Positions 3,384 through 64,000 of a stretch of DNA of 64,000 nt are shown here, one piece after another. Position 1 is the first letter of the stretch. Every line of letters begins with the position of its first letter. The notes beneath the pieces are model-generated. The model worked only from the letters and a program-made list of their open reading frames with translations, ran no database searches and was not told the DNA's origin. This DNA comes from an uncultured Gemmatimonadaceae bacterium. Lineage in GTDB: Bacteria > Gemmatimonadota > Gemmatimonadetes > Gemmatimonadales > GWC2-71-9. The stretch spans positions 47,466 to 111,465 of the forward strand of contig CAZNDK010000002.1 of NCBI GenBank assembly GCA_964571795.1. The letters run 5' to 3'. The position numbers and the translations under genes were made by a program.

Positions 3384-6205
3384 CCGCACCACCACCCGGC
3401 GGCGAGCGGCCCCGGGTGTTCCTGGTGGACGGCTACGCCCTGATCTATCGCGCCTTCTTCGCGATGATCACGCGCCCGCTGCGGACCGCCAAGGGGGAAA
3501 ACACCTCCGCCGCCTGGGGCGTGGCGAACTTCCTCGCGCGCCTCCTCGACACCCACCGCCCCGAGTACGTGGCGTGGGTGCACGACGCCGGGGATTCCTT
3601 CCGCACGGCCCGCTATCCCGAATACAAGTCCACCCGCGAAAAGCTCGACGAGGAACTCCAGGCGGACTTCGACACTGCAATCGTCCGCGTGACGCAGCTC
3701 CTCGCCGCGTGGCGCGTGCCGCTGGTTAGCGTCGAGGGGTACGAGGCGGACGACGTGATCGGCACCCTGGCCCGGGAGGCCGCCGAGCGCGACCTACAGG
3801 TCGTTATCGTGTCGGGCGACAAGGACTTCTACCAGTTGATCGGCCCACGGGTGGCCTTGCTCAACCCGGGGCGCGGCGGCCCCGGGGCGGTGGAAGAGGT
3901 GTATGTGGACGAGTCGAATGCCGCCGAGCGGCTCGGGGTGCCGCCCCGCCAGGTGGCGGACTACCTGGCACTGGTCGGCGACAGCTCCGACAACGTGCCG
4001 GGCGTCAAGGGCATCGGCGACAAGGGCGCGCGGCAGCTGCTCGAGGAGTACGGCGATCTCGAGACCATCCTGGCGCGGGCCGCCGACGTGACCGGCAAGC
4101 GGGCCCGCGAGGCGCTCCTCGCGCAGCCCGAGCAGGCACGCCTGTCCCGCGAGCTGGTCACCATCCAGACCAACGTGCCGGTGGCCTTCGAGCCCGACCG
4201 CCTGGCCCGGCAGGAGCCGGACCGCGACGCGATGGCGCGGGTGCTGGCGGAACTCGAGTTCTACGGATTGGCGCGGAGACTGGGGTTGGGCGGTGAACAG
4301 GCGGGTCAGCGGGTCAGCGGGGAGGCGGAGGTTGCAGGGGCCTCCCCGCTCCTCAAGCTCTCCGACGACGCCCTCCGTGTCACCGTCGTCGACGACGCGA
4401 GTGCCCTTCCCGCCCTCGTGGCACGCCTGCGCCAGGCGCCGCTCGTGGCGCTCGACACCGAGACCACCTCGCTCGAACCGCACGACGCGGAGCTCATTGG
4501 GCTCTCGCTGGCGGCGAGCGCCACGGAGGTCTGGTACCTCCCCTTCGGGCACCGTCCCCGCGCCGGCGCGCTCGCGGCACCCGCCCCGGTGCACAACCTC
4601 CCGCCGCTCACCGACCCCGCGTGTGCGCCAGTGGCCGAGCTGCTGCGCGATCCGGGCGTGCCGAAGGCGGGGCAGAACATCAAGTACGACTGGCAGGTGC
4701 TCCGCCGCGCCGGCGTGGAGCTGGCCGGGGTCACGTACGACTCGATGCTCGCGAGCTTCGTCCTCGACCCGGGCCGCCGCTCCCATGCGATCGACGCGCT
4801 GAGCCTCGAGCACCTCGGGCGCGGTATGCGGAGCTACACCGACCTCACGGGCAAAGGGGCGTCGCAGATCCCGTTCGCCGAAGTCGATGTGGCGGACGCC
4901 GCGGCCTACTGCGGGGCCGACAGCGCCACCGTCCTGGCGCTGCACACGCTCTTCGCGCCGCAGCTGAAGGAGATGGCGCTGGCGCCGCTGCTCGATGACC
5001 TCGAGATGCCGCTCGTCGAGGTGCTGGTTGACATGGAGTGGGCGGGGATCGCCATCGACCGGCCGCTCTTCGAGCGGCTGTCGCGCGACATGGCGGGGGA
5101 GCTGGCCCGCCTCGAGGCGTCCATCCAGGCGGCGGCGGGCACGACCTTCAACCTGAACTCCCCGAAGCAGCTGGGGCAGGTGCTCTACGAACAGCACCAG
5201 CTGCCTATCCTGAAGAAGACCCGCACCGGGCCGTCCACCGACGCCGACGTGCTCGAGCAGCTGGCCGCCATGGGGCATGAGGTGCCGCGCCTCATCCTCG
5301 AGTACCGCGAACTGCAGAAGTTGCGCTCGACCTACGTCGAGGTGCTGCCCGCCCGCGTCAACGCCACGACCGGCCGGATCCACACCAGCTTCAACCAGAC
5401 GGGCGCCGCCACCGGCCGGCTCAGTTCCTCCGACCCGAACCTACAGAACATCCCGGTGCGCACGCCGCGCGGCGAGGCGATCCGGGCCGGCTTCATCCCG
5501 GGGGCGGGGTGCCTCTTCCTCGCCGCCGACTATTCGCAGATCGAGTTGCGGCTCATGGCCCACCTCTCGGGCGACCCGGCCTTCACCGCCGCGTTCCGGC
5601 AGGGCGACGACATCCACCGCCAGACGGCGGCCATCATCTTCAACGTGCCGCTCGCCGAGGTGACGGGCGAGATGCGCGCCCGGGCCAAGACCATCAACTT
5701 CGGCACGATCTACGGCCAGGGGCCGTTCGCGCTCTCCCGGCAGCTGGGCATCTCGCAGGAGGAGGCGAAGGAGTTCATCACGCAGTACTTCCAGCGCTTC
5801 AGCGGCGTCCGCGCCTTCCTCGACCGCCAGGTCGAGATCGCCCGCGAGCAGGGGTATGTCGAGACCCTCCTCGGCCGGCGCCGCTACATCACCGACATCC
5901 GCGACAAGAACTTCAACGTGCGGGCCTTCGCCGAGCGCACAGCCCAGAACACTCCCCTCCAGGGATCCGCCGCCGACCTCATCAAGGTGGCGATGATCCG
6001 CATCCATCACGCGCTCCGGCGCGAGGGCCTCCGCACCCGCATGCTGCTGCAGGTGCACGACGAGCTCGTGTTCGAGGCGCCCGAGGACGAGGTGGAGCGG
6101 GTGCGGCCGCTGGTGAAGGGCCTGATGGAGGGGGCGGCGACGCTGCAGGTGCCGCTGGTCGTGGACGTGGGCGTGGGGAAGAACTGGCTGGAGGCGAAAC
6201 GCTAG
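3380..6205 (+). CDS. polA: DNA polymerase I
   Basis: 5'-nuclease N-terminus VFLVDGYALIYRAFF. 3'-5' exonuclease ALDTETTSLEP. Polymerase motifs DYSQIELR, RARAKTINFGTIYG, QVHDELVFE. ATG at 3380 overlaps the upstream stop (ATGA). The track ORF from 2927 is an in-frame upstream extension overlapping the GWxTD gene. Confidence 0.95.
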   Translation: MTAPPPGGERPRVFLVDGYALIYRAFFAMITRPLRTAKGENTSAAWGVANFLARLLDTHRPEYVAWVHDAGDSFRTARYPEYKSTREKLDEELQADFDTAIVRVTQLLAAWRVPLVSVEGYEADDVIGTLAREAAERDLQVVIVSGDKDFYQLIGPRVALLNPGRGGPGAVEEVYVDESNAAERLGVPPRQVADYLALVGDSSDNVPGVKGIGDKGARQLLEEYGDLETILARAADVTGKRAREALLAQPEQARLSRELVTIQTNVPVAFEPDRLARQEPDRDAMARVLAELEFYGLARRLGLGGEQAGQRVSGEAEVAGASPLLKLSDDALRVTVVDDASALPALVARLRQAPLVALDTETTSLEPHDAELIGLSLAASATEVWYLPFGHRPRAGALAAPAPVHNLPPLTDPACAPVAELLRDPGVPKAGQNIKYDWQVLRRAGVELAGVTYDSMLASFVLDPGRRSHAIDALSLEHLGRGMRSYTDLTGKGASQIPFAEVDVADAAAYCGADSATVLALHTLFAPQLKEMALAPLLDDLEMPLVEVLVDMEWAGIAIDRPLFERLSRDMAGELARLEASIQAAAGTTFNLNSPKQLGQVLYEQHQLPILKKTRTGPSTDADVLEQLAAMGHEVPRLILEYRELQKLRSTYVEVLPARVNATTGRIHTSFNQTGAATGRLSSSDPNLQNIPVRTPRGEAIRAGFIPGAGCLFLAADYSQIELRLMAHLSGDPAFTAAFRQGDDIHRQTAAIIFNVPLAEVTGEMRARAKTINFGTIYGQGPFALSRQLGISQEEAKEFITQYFQRFSGVRAFLDRQVEIAREQGYVETLLGRRRYITDIRDKNFNVRAFAERTAQNTPLQGSAADLIKVAMIRIHHALRREGLRTRMLLQVHDELVFEAPEDEVERVRPLVKGLMEGAATLQVPLVVDVGVGKNWLEAKR

Positions 6206-6206
6206 G

Positions 6207-8468
6207 TTAGTCCTCCTCCTTCCGCTGCTCCCTGACCCCCGGCCACCAGTTCCAGCGCCCGGCGAGGTGCATGAACGCGGGCACCAGCACCATCCGGATG
6301 ATCGTGGCGTCGAGCAGGACGGCCACCGCCAGCCCGAAGCCGAGGAACTGCACCATCAGCACCCGCGCGAAGGCGAAGGCGCCGAAGACCAGGATCATGA
6401 CGAGCGCGGCGGAGGTGATGACCGAGGCCGTGGCCGACAACCCCTCCATCGTGGCCTCCTTGTTCCGCCCCGTGCGGTCGTAGGCCTCCTTGATCCGGCT
6501 CAGCAGGAACACCTCGTAGTCCATGCTCAGGCCGAAGACGATGGCGAAGACCATCACCGGCACCACCACGTAGATGGCGGAGGTGGGCCCGTCCAGCCCG
6601 AGCAGCCCCGCCCCCCACCCATACTGGAACACGAGCACGCTGAGTCCGAAGGTCGCGCTCACCGACAGGCTGTTCATCACGATGGCCTTGATCGGCACCA
6701 GCACCGACCGGAAGGCGATCGCGAGCATGAGGGCCGTCACGCCCAGCACGACGCCGATGAGCAGCGGGAAGACCCGCAGCAGGTCGTCCTGGAAATCGGT
6801 GGCGGCGGCGGTGTAGCCGCCGACGATGATCGTGGTGCCCTTGAGCCCGCGGATCGGCGCGTCCCGGATCGCGCGGATGTCGCGAACCAGCTGCATCGAC
6901 GTGGTAAGGGTGGTCGTGTCGGCGGGGAAGACGTCCACCAGCGCGATCCGCTGGTCGGTGCCGAGGTAGGCGTCCAGAAAGTCGCCGAGATCGGCGCGCG
7001 CGGCGGGGAGGTCGCTGTAGAGCACCGAGTACTCCAGCAGCGAGGCGCCCTTCTTCACCGTCGTCAGGCTGGTGACACGGCCCACGCGTGGGTCCGCCGC
7101 GAGCGAGTCCGTCAGGTTGCGGAGCCCGCGGAGCCGGGCCGCCGTCGTGATGGTTTCGCCCTCCGGCACTTCCACGAGCACGCGGATCGGGAGCATGATC
7201 CCCGACGCGCCCATCGCAGAAAGCGTCTCGGCGCCGCGACCCGCCTCGGTGGCGGTGGGCCACCAGTGGCGCGACGGCAGCCCGATCTTGATCAGGAACA
7301 CCGGGGCGGTGAGCAGCAGGACCCCGACCCCGCCCAGCGTGAGCGCGCGGTAGGGATGCCGGCTCAGGGAGCGCGCCCAGCGCTCCCAAATGGTCGGGGC
7401 GTGGTACCAGGCCAGCCGCCGGGCGAGCCAGCGCGGCGTGTCGATGGCGCGCCCGAGGATCGCGAGCAGGGCCGGCAGCAGGGTCGTCGACAGGAGCACC
7501 GCCACGGCGACGACCACGAGGCCGCTCAAGCCGATACTGCGAGTTTCGACCATGGGAGGAATCAGCAGGGCCGCGAAGCCGACCAGGACCGTGAGCCCCG
7601 AGGTGATGACCGCGCTGCCGGCGGTGGCGAGTGTCCGGCGGGCGGCTTCATGGCGCCGGAGGCCGCGCTTCAGCTCTTCGCGGAACCGCGTCACGATGAG
7701 CAGCGAGTAGTCGATGCCGACGCCCAGCCCGATCATCGTCGTGAGGTTGAGGACGAAGACCGACATCGGCGTGTAGAGTGCGAGGATCCCGATGAGCGCC
7801 AGGGCCACGAAGATCGCGAGGATCCCGACCGCCACCGGGAGGAGCGCGGCCACCAGCGCGCCGAAGGCGAGCACCAGGACCATCAGGGTGAGCGGCAGCA
7901 CGCGGAGCTCGCTCCGCCGGCTGTCCTCGGCGCTGACGTGCCGGATGTCCAGGTCCAGCGCGGCCCGGCCGGTCACCGTGGCCCGGTAGTCCTCGGCGTC
8001 GGGGAACGCCGCCAGCGCGCGCTGGACCGCCCGCCGGGCCGGCACCACGTACGCGCCGGCGTCCTTCCCCGGTACGCTGAGGGCGACCAGGATGAAGGTG
8101 GTGCGTCCGTTGCTGCTGATGAAGAGGGAGTCGCCGGTCGAGGCGAAGCTCAAGACGGACCGGACGTACGGTTCGCGCCGCATGCGTGCGACGAGGGAAT
8201 CCAGGATGGCCGCGGGGCCGGGCCGGTCCACCGGCACCGGAGCCTCGAAGGTGATCGCGAAGAACTCGCCGATGGAACGGCTGAAGCGCGCCTGCAGCAG
8301 CCGGTCCGCGCGGACCGCCTCGGTTTCCCGGGTGCTGCCGCCCCGGAGGTCGAGGCGCTCCGGCGTAAGCCGGGCCTGGATGACCGCGAGCGTGCCGACG
8401 ATCACCCAGAGCGCGATGACCGCCCACCGGAACTTCACGACGGCCCGCGCGAACAACTTCATCACCAC
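6207..8468 (-). CDS. MMPL/RND-superfamily membrane transporter
   Basis: 753 aa. Two multi-TM blocks, each followed by the MMPL hallmark (VGIDYSLLIVTRFREEL and GLSMDYEVFLLSRIKEAY). GTG start at 8468, with an alternative ATG at 8462. Convergent with polA across a 1-nt gap. Confidence 0.85.
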   Translation of the reverse strand: MVMKLFARAVVKFRWAVIALWVIVGTLAVIQARLTPERLDLRGGSTRETEAVRADRLLQARFSRSIGEFFAITFEAPVPVDRPGPAAILDSLVARMRREPYVRSVLSFASTGDSLFISSNGRTTFILVALSVPGKDAGAYVVPARRAVQRALAAFPDAEDYRATVTGRAALDLDIRHVSAEDSRRSELRVLPLTLMVLVLAFGALVAALLPVAVGILAIFVALALIGILALYTPMSVFVLNLTTMIGLGVGIDYSLLIVTRFREELKRGLRRHEAARRTLATAGSAVITSGLTVLVGFAALLIPPMVETRSIGLSGLVVVAVAVLLSTTLLPALLAILGRAIDTPRWLARRLAWYHAPTIWERWARSLSRHPYRALTLGGVGVLLLTAPVFLIKIGLPSRHWWPTATEAGRGAETLSAMGASGIMLPIRVLVEVPEGETITTAARLRGLRNLTDSLAADPRVGRVTSLTTVKKGASLLEYSVLYSDLPAARADLGDFLDAYLGTDQRIALVDVFPADTTTLTTSMQLVRDIRAIRDAPIRGLKGTTIIVGGYTAAATDFQDDLLRVFPLLIGVVLGVTALMLAIAFRSVLVPIKAIVMNSLSVSATFGLSVLVFQYGWGAGLLGLDGPTSAIYVVVPVMVFAIVFGLSMDYEVFLLSRIKEAYDRTGRNKEATMEGLSATASVITSAALVMILVFGAFAFARVLMVQFLGFGLAVAVLLDATIIRMVLVPAFMHLAGRWNWWPGVREQRKEED

Positions 8469-23859: not shown

Positions 23860-24137
23860 GCGGGCACGTCTTTCATCCCGGGCACCACGAGCTCCACGGC
23901 GTGACCGTGGTGCTCGACACCGCCGGGGCGCTCTGGGTGGGCCGGTTCGACTCCGTGACCCCGAAGGGGGTGCTGCTGCACGACGCGGGGTGCTTCCAGG
24001 ACGGCGTGACGGAGGGGACCCGCGAGGACTACCTCCGCAAGACGCTCAAGTTCGGGGTGCGGGCCACGCAAAAGAACGCGCTCATCCCGGAGGGGGAGGT
24101 GCGGGGGATACGGCAGCTGGCGGAGGTCGTGGGGTAG
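23856..24137 (+). CDS. small hypothetical protein with His-rich N-terminus
   Basis: GTG overlaps the upstream stop (GTGA). MSGHVFHPGHHELHG. Last gene of the suf cluster before the hairpin/T6 terminator. Confidence 0.5.
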   Translation: MSGHVFHPGHHELHGVTVVLDTAGALWVGRFDSVTPKGVLLHDAGCFQDGVTEGTREDYLRKTLKFGVRATQKNALIPEGEVRGIRQLAEVVG

Positions 24138-24151
24138 GAGCGGCCAGGGGC

Positions 24152-24225
24152 GAGGACTGAGGACTGAGGACTGAGGGCTGGCGACCGGGCACATGCCCTC
24201 AGTCCTCAGTCCTCAGTCCTTTTTT
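24152..24225 (+). terminator. (GAGGACT)3 perfect hairpin plus T6: GGACT-heptad element acting as an intrinsic terminator
   Basis: 24153-24178 pairs perfectly (26 bp) with 24195-24220. 16-nt loop. TTTTTT at 24220-24225. The last T is the first base of the convergent ferredoxin stop codon. Confidence 0.8.
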
Positions 24226-24440
24226 CAGGGCCAGACCTGGTCGCCGTGTTCGTCGATGAGGGTTATGGCGTCTACAGGACAGGCGCGGGCGGCGTCCAGG
24301 ACCAGTTCGTCCTCCGCCCCCTCCGGATCGACCACGACCGAGATGTCCTCGGAGTCGTGGGCAAAGACGTCGGGCGCGAGGCCGACGCAGTCGCCATAAC
24401 CCCGGCAAAGCGTCCGGTCGATCTTGATGGTGTACGGCAT
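24225..24440 (-). CDS. small single-cluster ferredoxin
   Basis: 71 aa from MPYTIKIDRTLCRGYGDCV...ACPVDAI. The track ORF starts at an upstream TTG. Confidence 0.8.
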   Translation of the reverse strand: MPYTIKIDRTLCRGYGDCVGLAPDVFAHDSEDISVVVDPEGAEDELVLDAARACPVDAITLIDEHGDQVWP

Positions 24441-36504: not shown

Positions 36505-37421
36505 TGGAGCCACTCGCCGTGGCGGCGGACGTGCTGGTGGCGGCGGTCGGCATCGCCACGCCGCTCGCGCTCGCGGCCACCGGCGAGACCATCGCCGAGC
36601 GCTCGGGCGTGGTGAACCTGGGGATCGAGGGTGCGATGCTCTTCGGCGCCTTGGGCGGAGCCATCGGCGCCACGCTGGGTGGGCCGGCGGGAGGGCTGGC
36701 CCTCGGCGTGCTCGCCGGCGTCGCGGTCGCGGCGCTCTTTGCGGCGGTGGCGGTCGGCGCGGGAGCGGACCAGATCATCTCGGGCACCGCCGTGACGCTG
36801 GGCAGCGTGGGGCTGACGGGCACCATCTATCGGCAGTTTTACGGAGCCGCCGGCGTGGGCCTTTCCATTCCGACATTGGCCCCGGTGCCGATTCCCGGCC
36901 TGTCCGGCATCCCGCTGGTCGGCGCGGCGTTCTTCGCGCAACCGGTCACCACCTACCTGGCAATCGGGTTGATCGCGGCATCGTGGTGGGCTCTCTTCCG
37001 GACGCGGCCTGGCCTGGCGCTCCGTGCCGCGGGGGAGGATCCAGTGGCGGCGCGGGCCGCCGGCGTGCCGGTGCGGCTGACGCGGAGCGTGGCGGTGCTG
37101 TTGGGCGGCGCGTTCGCGGGGCTGGCGGGTGCGACGCTTGTCCTGGCCCAGGTCGGGACCTTCGCCGAGCGCATGACGGCGGGGCGCGGGTTCATCGCCA
37201 TCGCGATCGTCGTGCTGGGGCGCTGGAATCCGGTGGGCGCGGCGCTGGCCGCGCTGCTCTTCGGGCTGGCCACGGCGCTGCAGTTCGCCTTTCAGGCGGC
37301 GGGGCTGCGGGTGCCGTATCAGCTGTTCCTGATGTTCCCGTTCCTGCTCACGTTGCTTGCGCTGGCTGGGGTGGTCGGGCGGGTGAAGGCACCGGCGGGC
37401 TTGGGGAAGAGGGAGGAATGA
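36501..37421 (+). CDS. ABC transporter permease (BMP-system, YufQ-like)
   Basis: ATG overlaps the upstream stop (ATGA). ERSGVVNLGIEG motif. Multi-TM. Confidence 0.85.
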   Translation: MMEPLAVAADVLVAAVGIATPLALAATGETIAERSGVVNLGIEGAMLFGALGGAIGATLGGPAGGLALGVLAGVAVAALFAAVAVGAGADQIISGTAVTLGSVGLTGTIYRQFYGAAGVGLSIPTLAPVPIPGLSGIPLVGAAFFAQPVTTYLAIGLIAASWWALFRTRPGLALRAAGEDPVAARAAGVPVRLTRSVAVLLGGAFAGLAGATLVLAQVGTFAERMTAGRGFIAIAIVVLGRWNPVGAALAALLFGLATALQFAFQAAGLRVPYQLFLMFPFLLTLLALAGVVGRVKAPAGLGKREE

Positions 37422-37570
37422 GAGGAATGAGAGGAAGGAGAAAAGGACTTGGGACTTGGAGGGGAGGAATGAGAAAAGAGACAGGAGGAGGTCCGCACCA
37501 AGGCAGCCTCCTTTCTCCTGTCTCCTTCTGCCCCTCCTAGTCCCTTAGTCCCTTTCCCCTTCCTCTACTC
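37405..37570. repeat. GGACT-heptad long hairpin element, copy 1 (purine arm / loop / pyrimidine arm)
   Basis: Purine arm 37405-37491, loop 37492-37506, pyrimidine arm 37507-37565. Core GGACTTGGGACTTGGAGGGG faces CCCCTCCTAGTCCCTTAGTCC. Fills the gap between convergent stops at 37421 and 37576. Confidence 0.8.
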
Positions 37571-37575
37571 TTCTA

Positions 37576-38016
37576 CTATTTCACTTCATCCGTGTCGACC
37601 TGCCCCGTCACCTTTCTCGTGATGATCGACCAGCCCGAGCCAACAGTCAGGATGAGCGTCACGGAAACCAGGACCAGGTGTACGATGCCGGAGGTGCTGC
37701 CGGGGGCCAGCACCTTCCAGCTGATCAGCAACCAGATCAGCACGCCACAAAGGGCCAGGCCCAGTACCACCCCGACGATCCCGAGGGACCGCCGGGTGGC
37801 CTGGATGAGGAACACCCAACCGATGAGGAGAACGAGTCCGACCAACACCTTCAGCGGTCCGATCCCGGTGATGGTGGTCGGGTCCCTGACGATGGGCAGG
37901 ATGGCCCAGTGGAACCAGGACCTGCCCAGGGGATTGAAGGTTCCGTACACCAGCAGCAGTGCCATCACGAACCTGCCCAGCACCGCCGTCCAATTGATCC
38001 CCCTGGAACCAGCCAT
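37576..38016 (-). CDS. hypothetical integral membrane protein (4 TM)
   Basis: 146 aa, ATG start, four hydrophobic helices. Somewhat lower GC than its neighbours. Confidence 0.6.
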   Translation of the reverse strand: MAGSRGINWTAVLGRFVMALLLVYGTFNPLGRSWFHWAILPIVRDPTTITGIGPLKVLVGLVLLIGWVFLIQATRRSLGIVGVVLGLALCGVLIWLLISWKVLAPGSTSGIVHLVLVSVTLILTVGSGWSIITRKVTGQVDTDEVK

Positions 38017-38052
38017 CCCCGGACTCCGTTCTATGGTGTGAAGCCTTCGAGC

Positions 38053-42854: not shown

Positions 42855-42855
42855 C

Positions 42856-42893
42856 GAGGACTGAGGGCCGAGGACTGAGGACTGAGGACTGAG
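42856..42893 (+). repeat. one-armed (GAGGACT)n heptamer array, 5.4 units
   Basis: GAGGACT GAGGGCC GAGGACT GAGGACT GAGGACT GAG. Starts 2 nt after the upstream stop and ends 10 nt before the GMC gene ATG. Confidence 0.85.
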
Positions 42894-42903
42894 AAAGAGC
42901 GCA

Positions 42904-44595
42904 ATGTCAGACATATTGGATTTCGTCATCGTTGGGTCAGGGTTCGGTGGGAGCGTTTCGGCCCTCCGGTTGACCGAAAAGGGATACCGCGTGCGGGTGC
43001 TGGAGCGCGGGAAGCGCTTCCGCGACGAGGACTTTGCCCGCACCAACTGGAACGTCCGGAAGGCCCTGTGGGCGCCGGCGCTCCGCTGCTTCGGCATCCT
43101 GCAGATCAGCCCATTCCGCGACGTCTTCGTCTTGCACGGCGCGGGCGTCGGGGGCGGGAGCCTGGGCTATGCCAACGTCCTGATGGCGCCGGGCGATGAG
43201 ATGTTCCAGGCGCCGGCCTGGCGCCACCTTGCCGACTGGAAGTCGCTGCTCGACCCGCACTACGACACCGCGCGCCGGATGCTCGGCGTGGCAGTGAACC
43301 CGCGCACCTGGCCGGCCGACATCCTGCTCAAGGAAATCGCCACCGAGCTCGGCACGGCGGACACCTGGCAGTCCACGCCGGTCGGCACCTTCTTCGGGGT
43401 GCCCGACGAGGAGGGCGAGGAGGTGCCCGACCCCTACTTCGGCGGCGAGGGCCCGGCTCGCTCGGGGTGCATCCATTGCGGCGGCTGCATGGTGGGGTGC
43501 CGGTACAACGCCAAGAACACACTGGTCAAGAATTACCTCTACCTGGCCGAGAAGTGGGGCGCGGAGGTGGAAGCGGAGGCGGAGGTGCGGGACATCGTGC
43601 CGCTCCCGGCCGGGCAGCCCGACGGGGCGCGCTACGAAGTGGTGTACCGCTCGGCGTCCGCACTCCTGTTCAAGGGGGAGCGGCGAATCCGCACCCGCAA
43701 CGTGATCGCCGCCGCCGGGGCCCTCGGCACGCTCCGGCTCCTCTTCCGCTGCCGGGACGTGACGGGGTCCTTGCCGAAGATTTCCCAGCGACTGGGCGAC
43801 CTGGTCCGCACCAACAACGAGTCGCTGCTCGGCGTCATCGCGCGCGACGACACGGCGGACTACTCGCAGGGCATCGCCATCACCTCCATCGTGCACGCCG
43901 ACCCGATCACCACGATCGAGCCGGTGCGCTACTCGGCGGGCTCCTCGATGATGCGGCTCCTGACCGGCCCGATCATCGACGGCGGGAGCGGGCTCTCGCG
44001 GCTGGCGCGCTCGGTGTGGGAAATCCTCTCGCGCCCCGCCGACTTTGCCCGCACCCACTTCCGGTCGCGCTGGGCCCAGCGCACCACGATCATCCTCGCC
44101 ATGCAGACCGACGACACCAAGCTCCGGTTCCGGTTCGGGCGGAGTTTCTTCACTCTGTTCCGGCGGGGGCTGGTGTCGCACCCGGACCCCGAGAGCGGGC
44201 ATCCGTCGGCCATCGAGATCAGCCGCAAGGTGACGCGGCGGTTCGCCGAGAAGATCGACGGCATTCCTGCGGGCTCGATCAACGAGAGCCTGCTCGGCAT
44301 CCCGATGACGGCGCACATCCTGGGCGGCTGCCCGTTCGGCACCAGCGCAGCCGACGGGGTGGTGGGCCTCGACTGCCAGGTGCACAACTATCCCGGCCTG
44401 TACGCAATTGATGGCTCGATCGTGCCGGCCAATCCGGGCGTCAACCCGAGCCTCACCATCACCGCGCTGGCGGAATACGCCATGAGCCGGGTGCCCGACA
44501 AGCCGGGCGCCAAGGCGCGCACTCCGATCGGTGTGGAGGGGACAGCAGCAGGGGCTCGGGGCGAAGCGTTGGCCGCAGCGATGACCGGGGACTGA
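42904..44595 (+). CDS. GMC-family FAD oxidoreductase (cholesterol oxidase-like)
   Basis: FAD motif DFVIVGSGFGGSVSALRLTEKGYRVRVLERG. C-terminal HILGGCPFG and DGSIVPANPGVNP. Confidence 0.85.
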   Translation: MSDILDFVIVGSGFGGSVSALRLTEKGYRVRVLERGKRFRDEDFARTNWNVRKALWAPALRCFGILQISPFRDVFVLHGAGVGGGSLGYANVLMAPGDEMFQAPAWRHLADWKSLLDPHYDTARRMLGVAVNPRTWPADILLKEIATELGTADTWQSTPVGTFFGVPDEEGEEVPDPYFGGEGPARSGCIHCGGCMVGCRYNAKNTLVKNYLYLAEKWGAEVEAEAEVRDIVPLPAGQPDGARYEVVYRSASALLFKGERRIRTRNVIAAAGALGTLRLLFRCRDVTGSLPKISQRLGDLVRTNNESLLGVIARDDTADYSQGIAITSIVHADPITTIEPVRYSAGSSMMRLLTGPIIDGGSGLSRLARSVWEILSRPADFARTHFRSRWAQRTTIILAMQTDDTKLRFRFGRSFFTLFRRGLVSHPDPESGHPSAIEISRKVTRRFAEKIDGIPAGSINESLLGIPMTAHILGGCPFGTSAADGVVGLDCQVHNYPGLYAIDGSIVPANPGVNPSLTITALAEYAMSRVPDKPGAKARTPIGVEGTAAGARGEALAAAMTGD

Positions 44596-44614
44596 GGACT
44601 GAGGACTGAGGGAG
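44587..44614 (+). repeat. one-armed (GAGGACT)n heptamer array, 4 units
   Basis: GGGGACT GAGGACT GAGGACT GAGGGAG. Contains the GMC gene stop codon (44593-44595) and ends 19 nt before the next ATG. Confidence 0.85.
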
Positions 44615-44633: not shown

Positions 44634-45119
44634 ATGACGTTGACGCTCACCTCCACCGCGTTCGAGCACGGCGGCGAAATTCCCGCGCGCTGCACCTGCG
44701 AGGGGAAGAATGCTGCCCCCGACCTGGCCTGGAGTGGCGTGCCGGCGGGAACGAAGAGCCTGGCGCTCATCGTGGACGATCCCGACGCGCCCGACCCCAC
44801 GGCGCCGAAGCGGACCTACGTGCACTGGGTGCTGTACGACATGCCGCCGGACACGAAGGGACTGCCGGAGGGCGTCACGTCGGCAGGCCTGCCGGCGGGC
44901 GCGCGCGAGGGGCTCAACGACTGGAAGCGCACCGGCTACGGCGGTCCCTGTCCGCCGATCGGCCGCCACCGGTATTTTCACAAGCTCTACGCGCTCGACG
45001 TGACCCTGCCCGACCTCGGGACGCCGGGCAAGCCGGCGCTCGAGGCGGCCATGCAGGGCCACGTGCTCGCCAAGGCGGAATTGATGGGCACCTACCAGAA
45101 GAAGGGATCGACACGATGA
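44634..45119 (+). CDS. YbhB/YbcL-family PEBP (Raf kinase inhibitor-like) protein
   Basis: SD GGGAGGGG. LIVDDPDAP, HWVLYD, GYGGPCPPIGRHRYFHKLYALD. Confidence 0.85.
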   Translation: MTLTLTSTAFEHGGEIPARCTCEGKNAAPDLAWSGVPAGTKSLALIVDDPDAPDPTAPKRTYVHWVLYDMPPDTKGLPEGVTSAGLPAGAREGLNDWKRTGYGGPCPPIGRHRYFHKLYALDVTLPDLGTPGKPALEAAMQGHVLAKAELMGTYQKKGSTR

Positions 45120-54264: not shown

Positions 54265-54292
54265 GAGGACTGAGGACTGAGGTCTGGGGACT
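54265..54292 (+). repeat. one-armed GGACT-heptad array, 4 units
   Basis: GAGGACT GAGGACT GAGGTCT GGGGACT, in the divergent region between 54244 (-) and 54367 (+). Confidence 0.8.
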
Positions 54293-54366: not shown

Positions 54367-55422
54367 ATGATCGTCGGAACCGCCCTTCTGGGCGCCGCCC
54401 TTCTCATTGGCCCGGCCACGGCTGCCGGCCCGAAGGAGGACGTGCTCTACATGAAGAACGGCGACCGGATGACCTGCGAGATCAAGACGATGGACGCGGG
54501 GGCGGTCTACGTGAGCCTCGACTACGTGGACGGAACGATCTCTGTCAACTGGATTCGCATCGCGCGTCTCGAGAGCCCGCAACTCTTCCTGGTGGAACTC
54601 GACGACGGCTCCATTCTCTCGGGGCACATCTCGGCACGCCCGATCGAGGGAACAGACTCGGTGCTGGTCGAGATCGACCGGCCCGATGGCACGAAGCTCG
54701 TGGTCGACAAGTCGAGGATTGCGGGCTTGAGCCGCACCTCCGACACCTTTTTTGGCCGCATGAACGGCAGCCTGACGTCGGGCATCAGCTATGCCAAGGG
54801 AAACAACACCACCACCTACAACATCGCGTCCAGCGTGAACTACCCGCGTCCCAGGTGGAGCATGGCGCTGGGATTCAATTCGAACTTCTCGAGCAGCACC
54901 GGCGCGGACGCCTCGACCCGCAACCAGCTGACCGCGGTGGGCGCCCACATGATGCGCTGGAACAACTGGTACTACACCGGCTTCGCCAGCGGGCTGCAGA
55001 GCGCCGAGCAGCAAATCAGCCTCCAGGCCAACGTGGGCGGCGGCGTCGGCCGGTACCTCAAGAAGTCGAGCACCGTCCGGGCCAGCGTCGTCGGCGGCAT
55101 GGTCTACCAGAACACCAACTACGAGTCCTCCGTCACCTCGGCCACATCCCAGGACCTGCTGGGCGTCATGCTGCTCGGGACCCTCAGCTACGTGCGCTTC
55201 AAGCAGACCACGCTGAGCCTGACCGTCAACGCGATTCCCTCGCTGACCGATCCGGGCCGGTTCTTCTTTAACACGAACGCCGCCTACTTCCTCAAGCTCT
55301 TCGGCGAGATCAACTGGAACCTCTCGTTCTACGGCAACTGGGACACCCAGCCCCCCGCGGGCACGTCGGGCAACGACTACGGCGTCAACTCCGGGCTCAG
55401 CTGGACGTTCGGCAACCAGTAA
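54367..55422 (+). CDS. DUF481-like outer-membrane beta-barrel protein with N-terminal extra domain
   Basis: AGGAG SD and signal peptide. The C-terminal two-thirds shows an alternating-strand pattern ending in GLSWTFGNQ. Confidence 0.6.
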   Translation: MIVGTALLGAALLIGPATAAGPKEDVLYMKNGDRMTCEIKTMDAGAVYVSLDYVDGTISVNWIRIARLESPQLFLVELDDGSILSGHISARPIEGTDSVLVEIDRPDGTKLVVDKSRIAGLSRTSDTFFGRMNGSLTSGISYAKGNNTTTYNIASSVNYPRPRWSMALGFNSNFSSSTGADASTRNQLTAVGAHMMRWNNWYYTGFASGLQSAEQQISLQANVGGGVGRYLKKSSTVRASVVGGMVYQNTNYESSVTSATSQDLLGVMLLGTLSYVRFKQTTLSLTVNAIPSLTDPGRFFFNTNAAYFLKLFGEINWNLSFYGNWDTQPPAGTSGNDYGVNSGLSWTFGNQ

Positions 55423-57332: not shown

Positions 57333-57343
<11 letters not shown>

Positions 57344-58904
57344 CCTCCCCGCACTCCGGCTGCCGACCCGGACCTACGCCGGGTACGCGCTGGCCCTGCT
57401 GGCGCTCCTCAACCTGCTGAGCTACGTCAACCGCAACGTGCTGTTTGCGCTGGTCCCGCCGATCGAGTTCGAGCTGGGCCTCACCGATACGCATATTGGA
57501 TGGATCGCCTCCGCCTTCGTGCTCCTCTTCTCGGTGGCGGTGTTCCCCTTCGGCGTGCTGAGCGACCTCCGCTCCCGGCGCGCCGTGGCGGCGGCCGGCG
57601 TGGTGGTCTGGAGCATCTTCGCCTTCCTGGCCGGCCTGTCCCGCGGCTTCTGGGGACTCTTCCTTTTCCGGGCGGCGGTCGGCATCGGGGCCGCGGCCTT
57701 CACCGCGGCAGCCGCCTCGCTCGTGGCCGATTACTTCCCCGGGCGCCGGCGCGCGGTGGCGCTCGGCGTCTTCTCCGCCGGCATCCCCATCGGCGGGGTG
57801 ATGGGCATCGCCCTCGGCGGGCAACTGGACGAGCTCTACGGATGGCGCATCGCCATGATGGCGGTGGCGGTGCCGGGCCTCTTGCTCGCGGCACTGGTGG
57901 CCCGGCTCACCGATCCGAGCCGCCCGCCCCCGACCCTCACGGTCCGCGAATATTGGCGGCAGCTGGAAATGGGCGCCGCCGGTGCATTCCGGACCGCGTG
58001 GCCACTCCTCCTCGGCGCGGGAGCCGGCGGCCTGGCCGCCTGGGTGCTCGACCGCCGTTTCGGAGCCACCTCCACGCTCGACATGGCGGCGCTGGCCAGC
58101 GGCATCGGCGTCGGGCTGGCGTGGAATCTCGTGCTGGTGGTCCGGCGGAACCGGCGCACCGACGGCAGCTTCGACTTTACGCCCACCGGCAGCGTCAACG
58201 ACGCCCTCACCGAAATGCGGCTCGCGGTGGATACCGTGCTCCGCACGCCTACCCTCAAGTACCTGTTCGTGGGCGGGGCGCTGGTGTCGTTCGGCATGAA
58301 CGGGCTGGTGGGCTGGGCGCCGACGTTCATGTCCCGGACGCTCGGACTCACCGTGGCGCAGGGCACGCTGCTGCTGGGTCAGTGGGGACTGCTGGCGGGG
58401 ACGGCGGGCACGCTCGCGGGCGGGTTCCTGGCGGACTGGCTGGGAAAGTTCACCGGCCGGGGGCGGATGCTGGTGTCGTCGCTCGGCCTGCTGGTGGGCG
58501 GACCGCTGGCCATCTGGCTCCTTGCTGTGCGCGACCTCGGCACCTTCGTGCCGATCTTCGCCGTGGCCTTCTTCTTCCTGACCCTGTACAACGGCCCGGT
58601 CATCGCGGCGGTGTTCGACGTGGCGCCGGCCCGGATCGGTGCCACCGTCGTCGGGGCCTACCTGCTCTTCATCCACGTGGCGGGCGACGCCATTGCACTC
58701 CCGCTCGTGGGGTTCCTGTCCGACCGCTTCGGCATCGACCGGGCCATCTTCATCCTGCCATCGGCGGCGATGGCCGGCGGCGGCGTGCTGCTGCTCGGCG
58801 TCAAGACTGTGCTGCGCGACATGAGCTTCGTGGCGGCGAGGACGACGGCGACGCACCCGGTGGTGAGGACGACAAGTGAGGGGAGGAAGGAAAAAGAGGA
58901 CTAG
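57333..58904 (+). CDS. MFS transporter
   Basis: GTG with GGGAG upstream. Overlaps the DHS gene end by 11 nt. 12-14 TM. SDLRSRR loop motif. The stop lies inside repeat copy 2. Confidence 0.85.
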
Positions 58905-59011
58905 GGACTAGGAGGGGCGGAAAGAGAAAAGAGAAAGGTGTTGGTCCGAGCGCCTCTTTTCTCCTTCCTCCTTGAACCTCTCCAAGTCCCAAGTCCTTTT
59001 TCTCCTTCCTC
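58878..59011. repeat. GGACT-heptad long hairpin element, copy 2 (inverted relative to copies 1 and 3)
   Basis: Purine arm 58878-58938 (..AGGACTAGGGACTAGGAGGGGCGGAAAGAG..), loop 58939-58952, pyrimidine arm 58953-59011 (..CTCTCCAAGTCCCAAGTCCT..). Overlaps the MFS stop and touches the csoR stop. Confidence 0.8.
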
Positions 59012-59364
59012 TATCGAGCCGACCGGTACATCAACTCCACCAACTCATCGTACATCGCTCCCGCCTGCTCCTCGCTGCCCGAGCGGATGGCGCCGGCGGC
59101 GCAGTGCTCGAGGTGGTTGCGGAAGAGCACCCGCGCCACTCCCCGCAGTGCCTCGTGCACCGACGACACCTGGGTCAGGACGTCGGCGCAGTAGCGCTCC
59201 TCCTCCACCATCTTCTGCAGCCCGCGGACTTGCCCCTCAATGCGACGGAGCCGGGTGAGCGCGGCGGCCTTGAGCTCGGGGTTCACCGCCACCGCGTGGG
59301 TGCCGTCGCCGGGGCGGGCGCACGCGCAGGGGGCGAAGGCGTCGTTGCTGGCGGTGTCCATCAT
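59011..59364 (-). CDS. csoR: CsoR/RcnR-family metal-sensing repressor
   Basis: [25 protein letters not shown]...HLEHC (Cys-His-Cys ligand pattern). ATG overlaps the copA stop. Confidence 0.85.
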
Positions 59365-62228: not shown

Positions 62229-63863
62229 ATGAGCGACCACCGCGACTCGTTCCGATCCTCCTCCGAAGGGAGCGAAATCGAGGCCCTCGATTTGAGGGTG
62301 CCTCTGCTTCGCCTCAAGGGGAGCTCGTGGGACGCCGTGGCGCTGGAGACCTGGCTGGAGGCCCTGTCGGGTCTGCTCGCGCCGGAGCTCCCGCACGACC
62401 TGATGGCGCTCTGGGTGTATCCGCCCGAGGGCCCGGCCGTGCTGATCGGTCCGTCGGCCCTCGCGCAGGACAGCCTCGAGGTGCCGACCCCTGCGCCGCA
62501 CTTGGGACAGGATGAGCTCTACACCATGGAGCAGCGCATTCGCACCGCGGGTTACGCCTCCGTGGTGTGCATGGCCGTGCCGCATGGCGACCGCGACGTG
62601 GGCCTCTTGCTGCTCGCCGACCTTCGACACGCCCGCTATGGATTGCCGGAGGCGGTGCTGCTCCGGAACGTGGCCGACTCGCTCGGGCCCACTCTGGCGC
62701 GCGTGGCGCGGCAGGGCAGGGAACCCCTCGAGCCCCCGCGCGACGACGGCTCCCCGCCGCCGCCCGAACGCCGCCGCTCGGAACCGGGCCGGAAGCTCGT
62801 CGAACTTCACGCCCTCCTGGCCAAGCTCGGCCTGGCCGAGTCGGCCTCGCGCACGCCGAGGGAGTTCTCTGAATTCGTGTCGCAGGCGCTGCAGCCGATG
62901 CTGCCCCATGATCGCATGCAGATCCTGGTGCCCGACGCGTCGGCGCAGGAGCACTATCGCTTCGACCGGCATGGCCCCGGCACCTTCTGGTCCGATCCGG
63001 CGCTGGTGGTCACGCGGGAACAGTTCGACCCCGCGGCGCTCTTCGGTGATGCGGACGAGATCCTGGTAGGCGATACCAGTGCGCAGCCGCATCATCCCGC
63101 CTGGTGTCCGGATATCCCGGGGCAGGGCAGGGGAGAGCCGCTGGCGCGCGCGGTCATCGGCGTGCGGCTGCTCTCGCAGACGCGGGTGGCGGGCTACCTC
63201 CTCCTGGGCGGCAACGGCCCCGACTTCTTCCGGCCCGACGATCTCGACCTGCTGCGCCAGGTGGCGCCGCTGGTGGCGGTGCGGGTCGACAGCTTCCTCC
63301 TCGCCTGGCAGGTGCAGGTCATGCGCTCGCACCTGAGCGTGCTCCGCAATGTGCCGGCCCACCTGGGGCGCATCGCCGAGGTGCTCGCCACCACGGCGCA
63401 CGTGGGCGCGGCCACGCGGCTCTTTGCGCGCGAGGCGGCCAGCGTGCTGCCCTTCGACCGGATGGAGTTTGCACTTCGCCTCGGCGAAGCAGACGAAGTG
63501 GTGATGGTGGCTCCGGGCGACGCCCGGCCGCTGCCCGACCTGCCGCTCGTGTCGGTGGCCGGCACCGAGCTGGGCCGTGTGCTGCGGGGTGAACTGCCGC
63601 ATGCGTACGCGTCGGCGCGCCGCCAGCTCGAGGCCGACCCAGGGACGGGGCACCCCACGGCCGCGCTGGTGGTACCGCTCCGCCTGGCGGGCCGGATCTT
63701 CGGCTGCCTGACGCTGCTGGCGGCCGGCGCCGACGCCTTCACGCGGGCCGACATCGCGCTGGCACAGCAGCTGGCGGACGTCCTGGCTCCCCACCTCGAA
63801 CTGCTCCGCCGGGCGTCGCTGTCGACGCCGCCGGTGGCGCCGGGATGGCGGAGACGGCCGTAG
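62229..63863 (+). CDS. multi-GAF-like domain protein without a recognisable output domain
   Basis: 544 aa. Three segments with the same pattern (..GLLLLADLRHARYGLPEAVLLRNVADSLGPTLARV; ..GYLLLGGNGPDFFRPDDLDLLRQVAPLVAVRV; ..GCLTLLAAGADAFTRADIALAQQLADVLAPHLELL), as at the ends of GAF domains. Confidence 0.65.
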   Translation: MSDHRDSFRSSSEGSEIEALDLRVPLLRLKGSSWDAVALETWLEALSGLLAPELPHDLMALWVYPPEGPAVLIGPSALAQDSLEVPTPAPHLGQDELYTMEQRIRTAGYASVVCMAVPHGDRDVGLLLLADLRHARYGLPEAVLLRNVADSLGPTLARVARQGREPLEPPRDDGSPPPPERRRSEPGRKLVELHALLAKLGLAESASRTPREFSEFVSQALQPMLPHDRMQILVPDASAQEHYRFDRHGPGTFWSDPALVVTREQFDPAALFGDADEILVGDTSAQPHHPAWCPDIPGQGRGEPLARAVIGVRLLSQTRVAGYLLLGGNGPDFFRPDDLDLLRQVAPLVAVRVDSFLLAWQVQVMRSHLSVLRNVPAHLGRIAEVLATTAHVGAATRLFAREAASVLPFDRMEFALRLGEADEVVMVAPGDARPLPDLPLVSVAGTELGRVLRGELPHAYASARRQLEADPGTGHPTAALVVPLRLAGRIFGCLTLLAAGADAFTRADIALAQQLADVLAPHLELLRRASLSTPPVAPGWRRRP

Positions 63864-63869
63864 ACAGGC

Positions 63870-63995
63870 GAAGGAGAAAGGGGACTTGGGACTTGGAGGG
63901 GTTCGAGGAGATAAGGAGAAATGTGGGTCGATCACCCCCGCCTCTCTCCTTCCTCTTTCCGCCCCTCCAAGTCCATAGTCCCTTTCTTCTTGACC
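63870..63995. repeat. GGACT-heptad long hairpin element, copy 3
   Basis: Purine arm GAAGGAGAAAGGGGACTTGGGACTTGGAGGGGTTCGAGGAG.. from 63870. Pyrimidine arm ..CCGCCCCTCCAAGTCCATAGTCCCTTTCTTC.. runs to about 63995. Starts 7 nt after the GAF gene stop and abuts the window end. Confidence 0.75.
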
Positions 63996-64000
63996 CCTTC

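Follow-up and report, generated by a model that had tools for sequence, protein, structure and literature searches.

Heptad-built hairpins at gene ends of a Gemmatimonadaceae bacterium form a dispersed repeat family that shares its arms with a PF05635 gene cassette

The window analyzed here, a stretch of 64,000 nucleotides (nt) from an uncultured Gemmatimonadaceae bacterium (contig CAZNDK010000002.1, positions 47,466–111,465), contains three long imperfect hairpins at 37405–37570, 58878–59012, and 63866–63996 (copies 1, 2, and 3, respectively), each with a 5′ arm of purines and a 3′ arm of pyrimidines, both made up of GGACTWG heptads. Copy 1 lies between an ABC-type permease gene (PF02653) and a convergent, minus-strand DUF6524 gene. 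Its purine arm (37405–37491, plus strand; match to a hidden Markov model (HMM) of the arms at 37435–37486, E = 1e-8) begins within the last codons of the permease gene, whose TGA stop (37419–37421) falls inside an outer (GAGGAATGA)×3 run. From there the arm continues inward with GAGGAAGGAGAAAA, (GGACTTG)2, and GAGGGGAGGAATGAGAAAAGAGACAGGAGGAGG, the purine run passing through (GGACTTG)2 and GAGGGG to 37491. The 15-nt apex loop, tccgcaccaaggcag (37492–37506), is locus-specific and absent from the other copies. The pyrimidine 3′ arm (37507–37575, plus strand; HMM match 37563–37505 on the minus strand, E = 6e-8) carries AGTCC units at 8-nt spacing (TAGTCCCT ×2), which produces a bulge against the 7-nt-spaced 5′ arm, and its end adjoins the stop of the DUF6524 gene (37576). 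Within the stem, GAGACAGGAG at 37478–37487 lies opposite CTCCTGTCTC at 37515–37524. The arms, loop, facing segments, and convergent flanking stops are as read in a first-pass annotation of this DNA.

Copy 2 (58878–59012) sits between convergent genes for a major facilitator superfamily (MFS) transporter (57333–58904) and a CsoR-like repressor, the latter ending at 59011. The (GGACTAG)2 of its 5′ arm provides the TAG stop (58902–58904) of the transporter gene and the element therefore overlaps the coding end. Copy 3 (63866–63996) begins 3 nt past the stop of a GAF-domain gene (62229–63863), with its right-hand context beyond the end of the window. Period-7 units (GGACTTG, GGACTAG, CCAAGTC, and GGGACTT) were found in all three copies by Tandem Repeats Finder (TRF). 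The core, GGACTWGGGACTWGGAGGGG, has five matches in the window at up to three mismatches, where 0.01 would be expected, and all five reside within the three copies, in agreement with the earlier proposal that two further elements share the core of copy 1. An asymmetry described at the same time, one arm being of ACTTGG type and the other of ACTAGG type, holds for copies 1 and 2 and only partly for copy 3.

The window stems comprise 45–55 predicted pairs. Both strands of copy 1 fold far better than shuffled sequences (−92.5 kcal/mol, z = −4.1 for the plus strand; −98.2 kcal/mol, z = −6.6 for the minus strand), with predicted RNA folds of −78.9 kcal/mol (z = −6.0) for copy 2 and −79.0 kcal/mol (z = −7.0) for copy 3; no shuffled sequence folded as well as copies 1–3 in any comparison. 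A scan of the window against Rfam at gathering thresholds gave no matches. In E-value mode only eukaryotic miRNA-precursor models appeared (at most 38 bits, against thresholds of 85–120), which reflects the fact that the element is a long hairpin and nothing more.

A search of one genome per species for exact matches to GGACTWGGGACTWGGAGG gave 72 loci (designated here by L numbers). About 40 of these are from metagenome-assembled genomes (MAGs) of Gemmatimonadales or Gemmatimonadaceae and carry the whole hairpin, the remainder being simple heptad arrays from other phyla and chance matches. The MAG loci were examined as 8-kb pieces. The same arms of ∼55 nt, in elements of ∼125 bases, are present at many unrelated loci in at least 10 Gemmatimonadales MAGs, with an arm consensus of GAGGAAGGAGAAAG-(GGACTTG)2-GAGGGGCGGAAGGAGAAAGGAGG and a 7-nt rhythm across the entire arm. 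The apex is about 15–35 nt long, GC-rich, and different among copies. In the window, an HMM built from the arms detected copies 1–3 and no others (about one per 20 kb), and in the MAG loci it detected a few additional copies and many solo arms. The hairpins are thus one real, so far unnamed dispersed repeat family of Gemmatimonadales, and the first-pass view of them as a family, as opposed to independently evolved terminators, is borne out by the same arm consensus at unrelated loci. Nine exact core matches in viral contigs (IMG/VR, L165–L173) were set aside as chance, since they lie in conserved phage coding sequence (...GRTWDLEGTF...) and are not the element.

The imperfections of the stem recur from element to element. 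In 15 of 26 elements a 7-nt-spaced arm (GGACTTGGGACTTGG) is paired with an 8-nt-spaced arm (GGACTTRAGGACTTGG), where the "5′ arm" was ascertained through the exact-match search and elements with two 8-spaced arms are thus invisible. Arm complementarity within an element is 0.727, as compared with 0.750 ± 0.006 for arms taken from other elements, and there is no compensatory covariation between the arms of one element, which fit the family consensus rather than each other. The recurrent 7-/8-spaced pairing and the within-element deficit together indicate that the stem mismatches are inherited, as had been supposed from the window copies. It appears that the arms are held near a common consensus through selection on sequence and not on pairing alone.

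The same arms were also found around a gene. At L050 and L014 (= L030), matches to the arm HMM are ∼415 nt apart and surround an open reading frame (ORF) of ∼125 amino acids that matches PF05635, the "23S rRNA-intervening sequence protein" (E = 5e-29 and 2e-30 for L050 and L014, respectively), as well as TIGR02436, "four helix bundle protein." The arms of L050 and L014 match the six window arms in a column-by-column alignment, and the core is invariant. Forms with and without the ORF occur together in the same MAGs, SPDF01 and CAZNLY01. With the same arms around a PF05635/TIGR02436 gene in relatives, the window hairpins look like gene-less counterparts of a cassette of the intervening sequence (IVS) type. 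An acidobacterial locus, L044, has the same design with heptads of its own: (GGGAATA)2(GGGACTA)2, the ORF, and (TATTCCC)2(TAGTCCC)2.

This design is general among PF05635 genes in metagenomes. Eighty metagenomic PF05635 loci were fetched through protein patterns only, blind to repeats, and 70 of them had both flanks. An inverted repeat across the ORF was found at z > 4 in 54 of the 70 (median score 37.5, against 17 for a direct-orientation control), and TRF reported tandem repeats on the upstream side of 66 ORFs and on the downstream side of 67. Their period was 7 or 14 in 58 of the 66 upstream and 60 of the 67 downstream arrays (about 88%). At 29 of 64 two-sided loci the upstream unit and the best-scoring downstream unit agree in period and are reverse complements with at most one mismatch; many of the remaining two-sided loci combine a period of 7 with one of 14 and were left out of the unit comparison. 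The heptad itself is lineage-specific (GTGATGA, GTGCTGA, GCAATGA, GTAACGA, GTCCAAA, GAGGAAA, and others), and GAGGACT, which builds a second class of arrays in the window, flanks PF05635 genes in L095, L118, L083, L084, L089, and L092. Stop codons are present in the upstream unit at 40 of 66 loci in the sense orientation compared with 10 of 66 in the antisense, and at a period of 7 a stop falls in every frame once three units are present. In L130 and L119, gene-bearing hairpins have ORF-less ones of the same heptad beside them, and IMG/VR contigs with PF05635 homologues have the same arm design (metagenomic and IMG/VR loci, L073–L164). These data establish a general link between heptad arms and PF05635 genes. 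Searches of the literature found no statement that PF05635 genes are generally bracketed by inverted heptad arrays, although curated family notes may contain one, and no description of gene-less dispersed versions of such cassettes.

PF05635/TIGR02436 proteins were reportedly first seen in rRNA intervening sequences in 1993. They are common and, to our knowledge, have no known function outside diversity-generating retroelements; the PF05635 protein is related to the nucleic-acid-binding Avd. The view of PF05635 as a HEPN family proved wrong, and a survey of HEPN families contains no mention of it. Excision from the precursor by RNase III is known only for the IVSs of Coxiella, Leptospira, and Salmonella. 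In the 23S rRNA of Coxiella burnetii, a 28-bp inverted-repeat stem surrounds the S23p (PF05635) ORF, two or three tandem heptamers (GACAGAT) precede the ORF in a number that varies by strain, and the cut made by RNase III has been mapped to the first of these repeats, within the stem (PMC4990558). An old suggestion that the IVS is, or was, mobile is cited in the same paper (PMC4990558).

The elements described here share with the 23S rRNA IVS the long terminal inverted repeats that form a stem and the tandem heptamers in the arms, both of which are present in the window, the 5′ heptamers just before the ORF and the PF05635 ORF in the loop, which are present in the relatives L050 and L014, and the variable repeat number and internal deletions between strains. 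They differ in that the window copies have no ORF in their apexes, which measure just 15–30 nt, the PF05635 loop being found only in L050 and L014/L030, and in that the copies occupy spacers of protein-coding genes (of tRNA genes in L032 and L034) and not helix 25 or 45; the Rfam scan found no rRNA in the window. Moreover, the window family is multi-copy (three in 64 kb), with longer arms (∼55 nt) and a clade-wide consensus. The family had been proposed as undescribed. This stands insofar as it matches no Rfam family and searches of the literature (by motif, for Gemmatimonas repetitive extragenic palindromic (REP) elements, and for heptamers with four-helix-bundle proteins) found no description of it, whereas its design matches that of the heptamer-stemmed 23S rRNA intervening sequences.

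The gene-bearing form also bears on a likeness to the Shine-Dalgarno (SD) sequence in the purine arm and to the anti-SD sequence in the pyrimidine arm, which had been put forward as mimicry. It is better explained as a by-product: where the arms enclose a gene, the inner purine arm (AAGGAGGGG) sits ∼10 nt before the ORF, and the pyrimidine arm resembles an anti-SD because it simply complements the purine arm.

In our own gene calls, full elements usually begin 0–30 nt past a stop codon, with a median of ∼20 nt. Six of them lie at convergent, 14 at tandem (co-directional), and two at divergent junctions; as divergent spacers make up 29% of intergenic bases, two of 22 amounts to a mild depletion (binomial p ∼ 0.03). 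Convergent gene pairs in the window are either 1–6 nt apart or, in three of the five spacers longer than 6 nt, have a heptad hairpin between them. Six of the 11 convergent pairs end within 6 nt of each other or overlap (6205/6207, 9695/9699, 12340/12342, 16499/16506, 45550/45554, and 51724/51694), which leaves no space for any terminator between those genes. Canonical terminators, a hairpin followed by a T-run, are not above chance in the window (5 versus 6.0 expected and 6 versus 6.4 expected). The inner arms and apex of copy 2 score as a terminator-like site, the sole copy to pass a simple scan, and copies 1 and 3 end in C/U-mixed tracts. For the annotation of Gemmatimonadales, the hairpins mark gene ends, supply stops, and stand out as the sole evident 3′ structures of a genome that shows no enrichment of canonical terminators.

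The family is not confined to the ends of protein-coding genes. In two MAGs (L032, 1211–1331, and L034, 5245–5369) a hairpin sits between tRNA-Pro(cgg) and tRNA-Arg(ccg) in a conserved seven-tRNA cluster, which probably yields a single stable-RNA precursor, and the element is therefore tolerated within it. At three other loci (L010 ∼3700, L012 ∼3165, and L050 ∼2365) a TATATT box follows directly past the 3′ arm, 5–6 nt before the next ATG. These boxes have no SD sequence, look like the −10 element of a leaderless mRNA, and precede genes that are not all the same.

Taken together, the arms, their position, and their counterpart around a PF05635 gene lead us to read copies 1–3, with moderate confidence, as ORF-less, dispersed IVS-like hairpin cassettes that would act as double-stranded RNA (dsRNA) stems at transcript ends. 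The proposed function, which includes transcription of the element, RNase III cleavage, and termination or insulation, is suggested by its anatomy and by the Coxiella precedent. Read-through from either neighboring gene would transcribe the element, and either strand would then be expected to fold into a near-continuous dsRNA stem of 45–55 bp. Such a stem would be open to cleavage by RNase III and would block RNA polymerase as well as 3′ exonucleases, and in this way it would set or insulate the ends of transcripts running in either direction. With the purine arm first, T-purine-purine stops (TGA and TAG) would lie in the arm first met by an incoming ribosome, so that the purine arm can close the upstream frame, as at the MFS transporter gene (copy 2) and the permease gene (copy 1).

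Several observations weigh against this reading. The gene-bearing form in Gemmatimonadales is known from one orthologous locus only, as L050 and L014/L030 have the same left flanking gene, and the link between family and gene therefore rests on one ancestral cassette together with the cross-phylum pattern. The window itself has no PF05635 homologue by tblastn, and the arm HMM found no GGACTTG-type arm among the 80 metagenomic PF05635 loci, so that arms of this type seem confined to the sampled Gemmatimonadales clade. The ORF may have been lost from a cassette or gained by a pre-existing hairpin, either direction being possible. The common GGACTTG variant has no stop codon and the supply of stops consequently leaves some copies uncovered. 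Genes in the MAG loci were called with a codon-usage caller trained on these same loci, and some starts are possibly misplaced. Finally, selection at the RNA level would predict compensatory changes or a sense-strand bias and neither was seen: pairing is poorer within elements than with shuffled partners (0.727 versus 0.750), and in the 14 co-directional cases there is no folding advantage of the sense strand, the mean sense-minus-antisense difference being −0.6 kcal/mol. Arm sequence that is conserved in this way, without pairwise compensation, is also compatible with a sequence-specific partner, be it a protein or a role at the DNA level.

The elements might instead be mobile. In this explanation, which we judge unlikely, they are classical non-autonomous transposons, miniature inverted-repeat transposable elements (MITEs), or REP elements or the paired REPINs moved by a RAYT transposase, with the arms serving as DNA-level terminal inverted repeats and the copies arising by transposition. 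They are indeed multi-copy, intergenic, and palindromic in many genomes, and an arm asymmetry that recurs among them suggests that they descend from a master copy. A clean case of presence and absence was also found: at 6203–6209 of the window a single nt separates two convergent stops (6205–6207) and only a degenerate heptad remnant lies within the C terminus of the minus-strand gene, whereas the orthologous spacer of a MAG that is ∼81% identical (L046, 5159–5310) holds a full hairpin of ∼150 nt plus (AGTCCTC)3. Convergent spacers that are either 1–6 nt long or filled by an element likewise resemble insertion.

The usual marks of MITE- or REP-like spread, as proposed in the first-pass annotation, are nonetheless missing. 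There is no target-site duplication, the longest word shared by the two flanks averaging 3.0 for 24 elements against 3.13 ± 0.87 for mismatched flanks, and the outer ends are fuzzy purine runs without sharp termini. No near-identical copies and no genome-specific homogenization were found, apexes differ among copies, and arm identity outside the core is 0.63 within genomes against 0.64 between genomes, which gives no sign of recent bursts. The REP-type 5′ GTAG head is absent, the ∼55-nt arms starting GAGGAAGGAG, and no transposase or RAYT was seen adjoining any copy, though the loci were not systematically scanned for one.

Comparison of orthologous loci points the same way. The site of copy 1 is occupied in L054, where the flanks are 90–93% identical and the element has its inner part deleted, and also in L045, L049, and L064, where the coding flanks are only ∼75% identical to the window. 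L049 and L064 have a common apex, so these copies were inherited and not re-inserted. L020, L031, and L029 have a site in common, and L032 and L034 have another. Collectively, these data suggest that the copies are old, mostly vertically inherited, and decaying via internal deletion. Beside copy 1, the DUF6524 gene (37576–38052) is present only in the window and the close relative L054, and in L045, L049, and L064 the hairpin adjoins an aquaporin (MIP) gene directly, which places a gene-sized indel exactly at the right edge of the element.

Among known mobile or extragenic families, the REP elements of proteobacteria, with their composite BIME and REPIN forms, are similarly extragenic, palindromic, and multi-copy, and are found after genes and within operons. 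Here, in contrast, there is no known RAYT partner and no homogenization within genomes, the apex is copy-specific, and the arms are heptad-built and ∼55 nt long as compared with 20–35 nt. REP/BIME elements are thought to stabilize upstream mRNA or to attenuate read-through. The MITEs of the Correia/NEMIS, ERIC, and RUP groups resemble the family in being 100–170 nt long and intergenic, with inverted terminal arms. They are co-transcribed with their neighbors, as would be the case for the present elements, and Correia elements are also RNase III targets. The Gemmatimonadales elements differ from them in having no target duplication, no conserved internal region, no recent copies, and no related transposase identified. 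A further candidate, an integron attC site, was rejected: there is no GTTRRRY/RYYYAAC at the ends, and the flanks are syntenic housekeeping genes conserved across species.

Another explanation would place the function in the DNA itself, with the arms as arrayed sites for a sequence-specific protein, possibly the PF05635 protein, or as a cruciform, G-quadruplex (G4), or H-DNA tract that affects replication, recombination, or chromosome structure. Arms that stay near a common consensus without pairwise compensation fit selection on sequence over structure, and directly iterated heptads set in inverted orientation are reminiscent of iterons or centromere-like sites. In addition, both strands are equivalent, and the G-runs of copy 1, such as GGG-ACTT-GGG-ACTTGGA-GGGG, are near a G4 motif. 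We consider this improbable, as PF05635 proteins have no known binding protein except in diversity-generating retroelements, the window is without a PF05635 gene, and the strong bias toward gene 3′ ends together with the stop codons in the arms points to transcription and translation. The H-DNA variant was rejected on sequence grounds, the arms being inverted repeats where H-DNA needs mirror repeats.

The least probable of the explanations, and one we would hold quite improbable, is that the hairpins are ordinary bidirectional intrinsic terminators, alike through convergence on the purine and pyrimidine tracts of the lineage and forming no family: their position right past stops, mostly between convergent or co-directional genes, the GC-rich apex between A-rich and T-rich inner arms, the lack of enrichment of canonical terminators described above, and a sister GAGGACT hairpin followed by T6 would suit it, but an exact core of 18–20 nt and a consensus of ∼50 nt at unrelated loci, and in species with 75%-identical coding flanks, are a likeness far beyond composition, the bulges are recurrent and inherited, most stems have no U-run, L050 and L014 have a gene between these arms, and a strong terminator within the tRNA cluster would cut off the last tRNA. 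U-tract-poor, "I-shaped" terminators have been proposed for high-GC bacteria, and the family shares with intrinsic terminators, this type included, a strong and possibly bidirectional hairpin directly past stops. It differs from them in its far longer stem (45–55 bp), its sequence conservation across loci, and its occurrence in a tRNA cluster.

A broader view is offered here tentatively, as possible though short of probable. Inverted tandem-heptad cassettes, with or without a PF05635/TIGR02436 gene, may be one widespread, unrecognized selfish or semi-domesticated class across phyla, of which the 23S rRNA IVS would be the rRNA-resident special case. All-frame stops and an RNase III-cleavable stem would then let a cassette sit harmlessly in any transcript, and gene-less derivatives would explain lineage-specific intergenic families such as that of Gemmatimonadales and possibly the cyanobacterial short tandemly repeated repetitive (STRR) heptamers. 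Such a link could connect rRNA intervening sequences, REP-like repeats of under-studied phyla, and perhaps the cyanobacterial heptamers; heptad bracketing with scattered gene-less hairpins, if general, would offer a concrete route to study both the PF05635 protein and intergenic repeats. The family combines features of IVS-like and REP-like elements and is more than a lineage-specific terminator.

The STRR sequences of heterocystous cyanobacteria are, like the present arrays, intergenic tandem heptamers. Two Nostoc loci (L027 and L055) consist of (GGGGACT)n, a small hairpin, and (CCCCAAT)n, with the same purine-first polarity, and look like classical STRR. They differ from the Gemmatimonadales family in phylum and in heptads. 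G-rich heptad arrays followed by a small hairpin and then complementary C-rich arrays, again purine-first, were observed in other phyla as well (L019, L041, and L060).

The window also contains arrays of the second heptad class. The sister hairpin mentioned above, at 24152–24226, is ORF-less and comprised of (GAGGACT)4, a 16-nt apex, (AGTCCTC)3 AGTCC, and T6. It is near-perfect (−74.5 kcal/mol, z = −9.7) and follows a plus-strand gene ending at 24137. Three solo arrays lie on the plus strand. The first, 5.6 units of GAGGACT at 42855–42893, occupies a tandem-gene junction, where it follows the upstream stop immediately, puts TGA in all three frames, and leaves 22 nt to the next ATG. The second, (GGACTGA)3.3 at 44589–44611, overlaps the end of the gene at 42916–44595 and provides its TGA stop, the downstream gene starting at 44634. 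The third, a degenerate (GAGGACT)4 at 54265–54292, is ∼75 nt upstream of a gene starting at 54367. Each unit of these solo arrays (42855, 44589, and 54265) holds a TGA, so that three units give a stop in all frames.

Other short intergenic repeats were observed in the same MAGs as the hairpin family, at L047, L051, L059, and L069 (past solo purine arms) and at L008 and L072. They include tandem arrays of an 8-nt CTTTCGTG-type unit and a GGGGYGGGCATAYGCCCRCCCC palindrome that is recurrent in one MAG.

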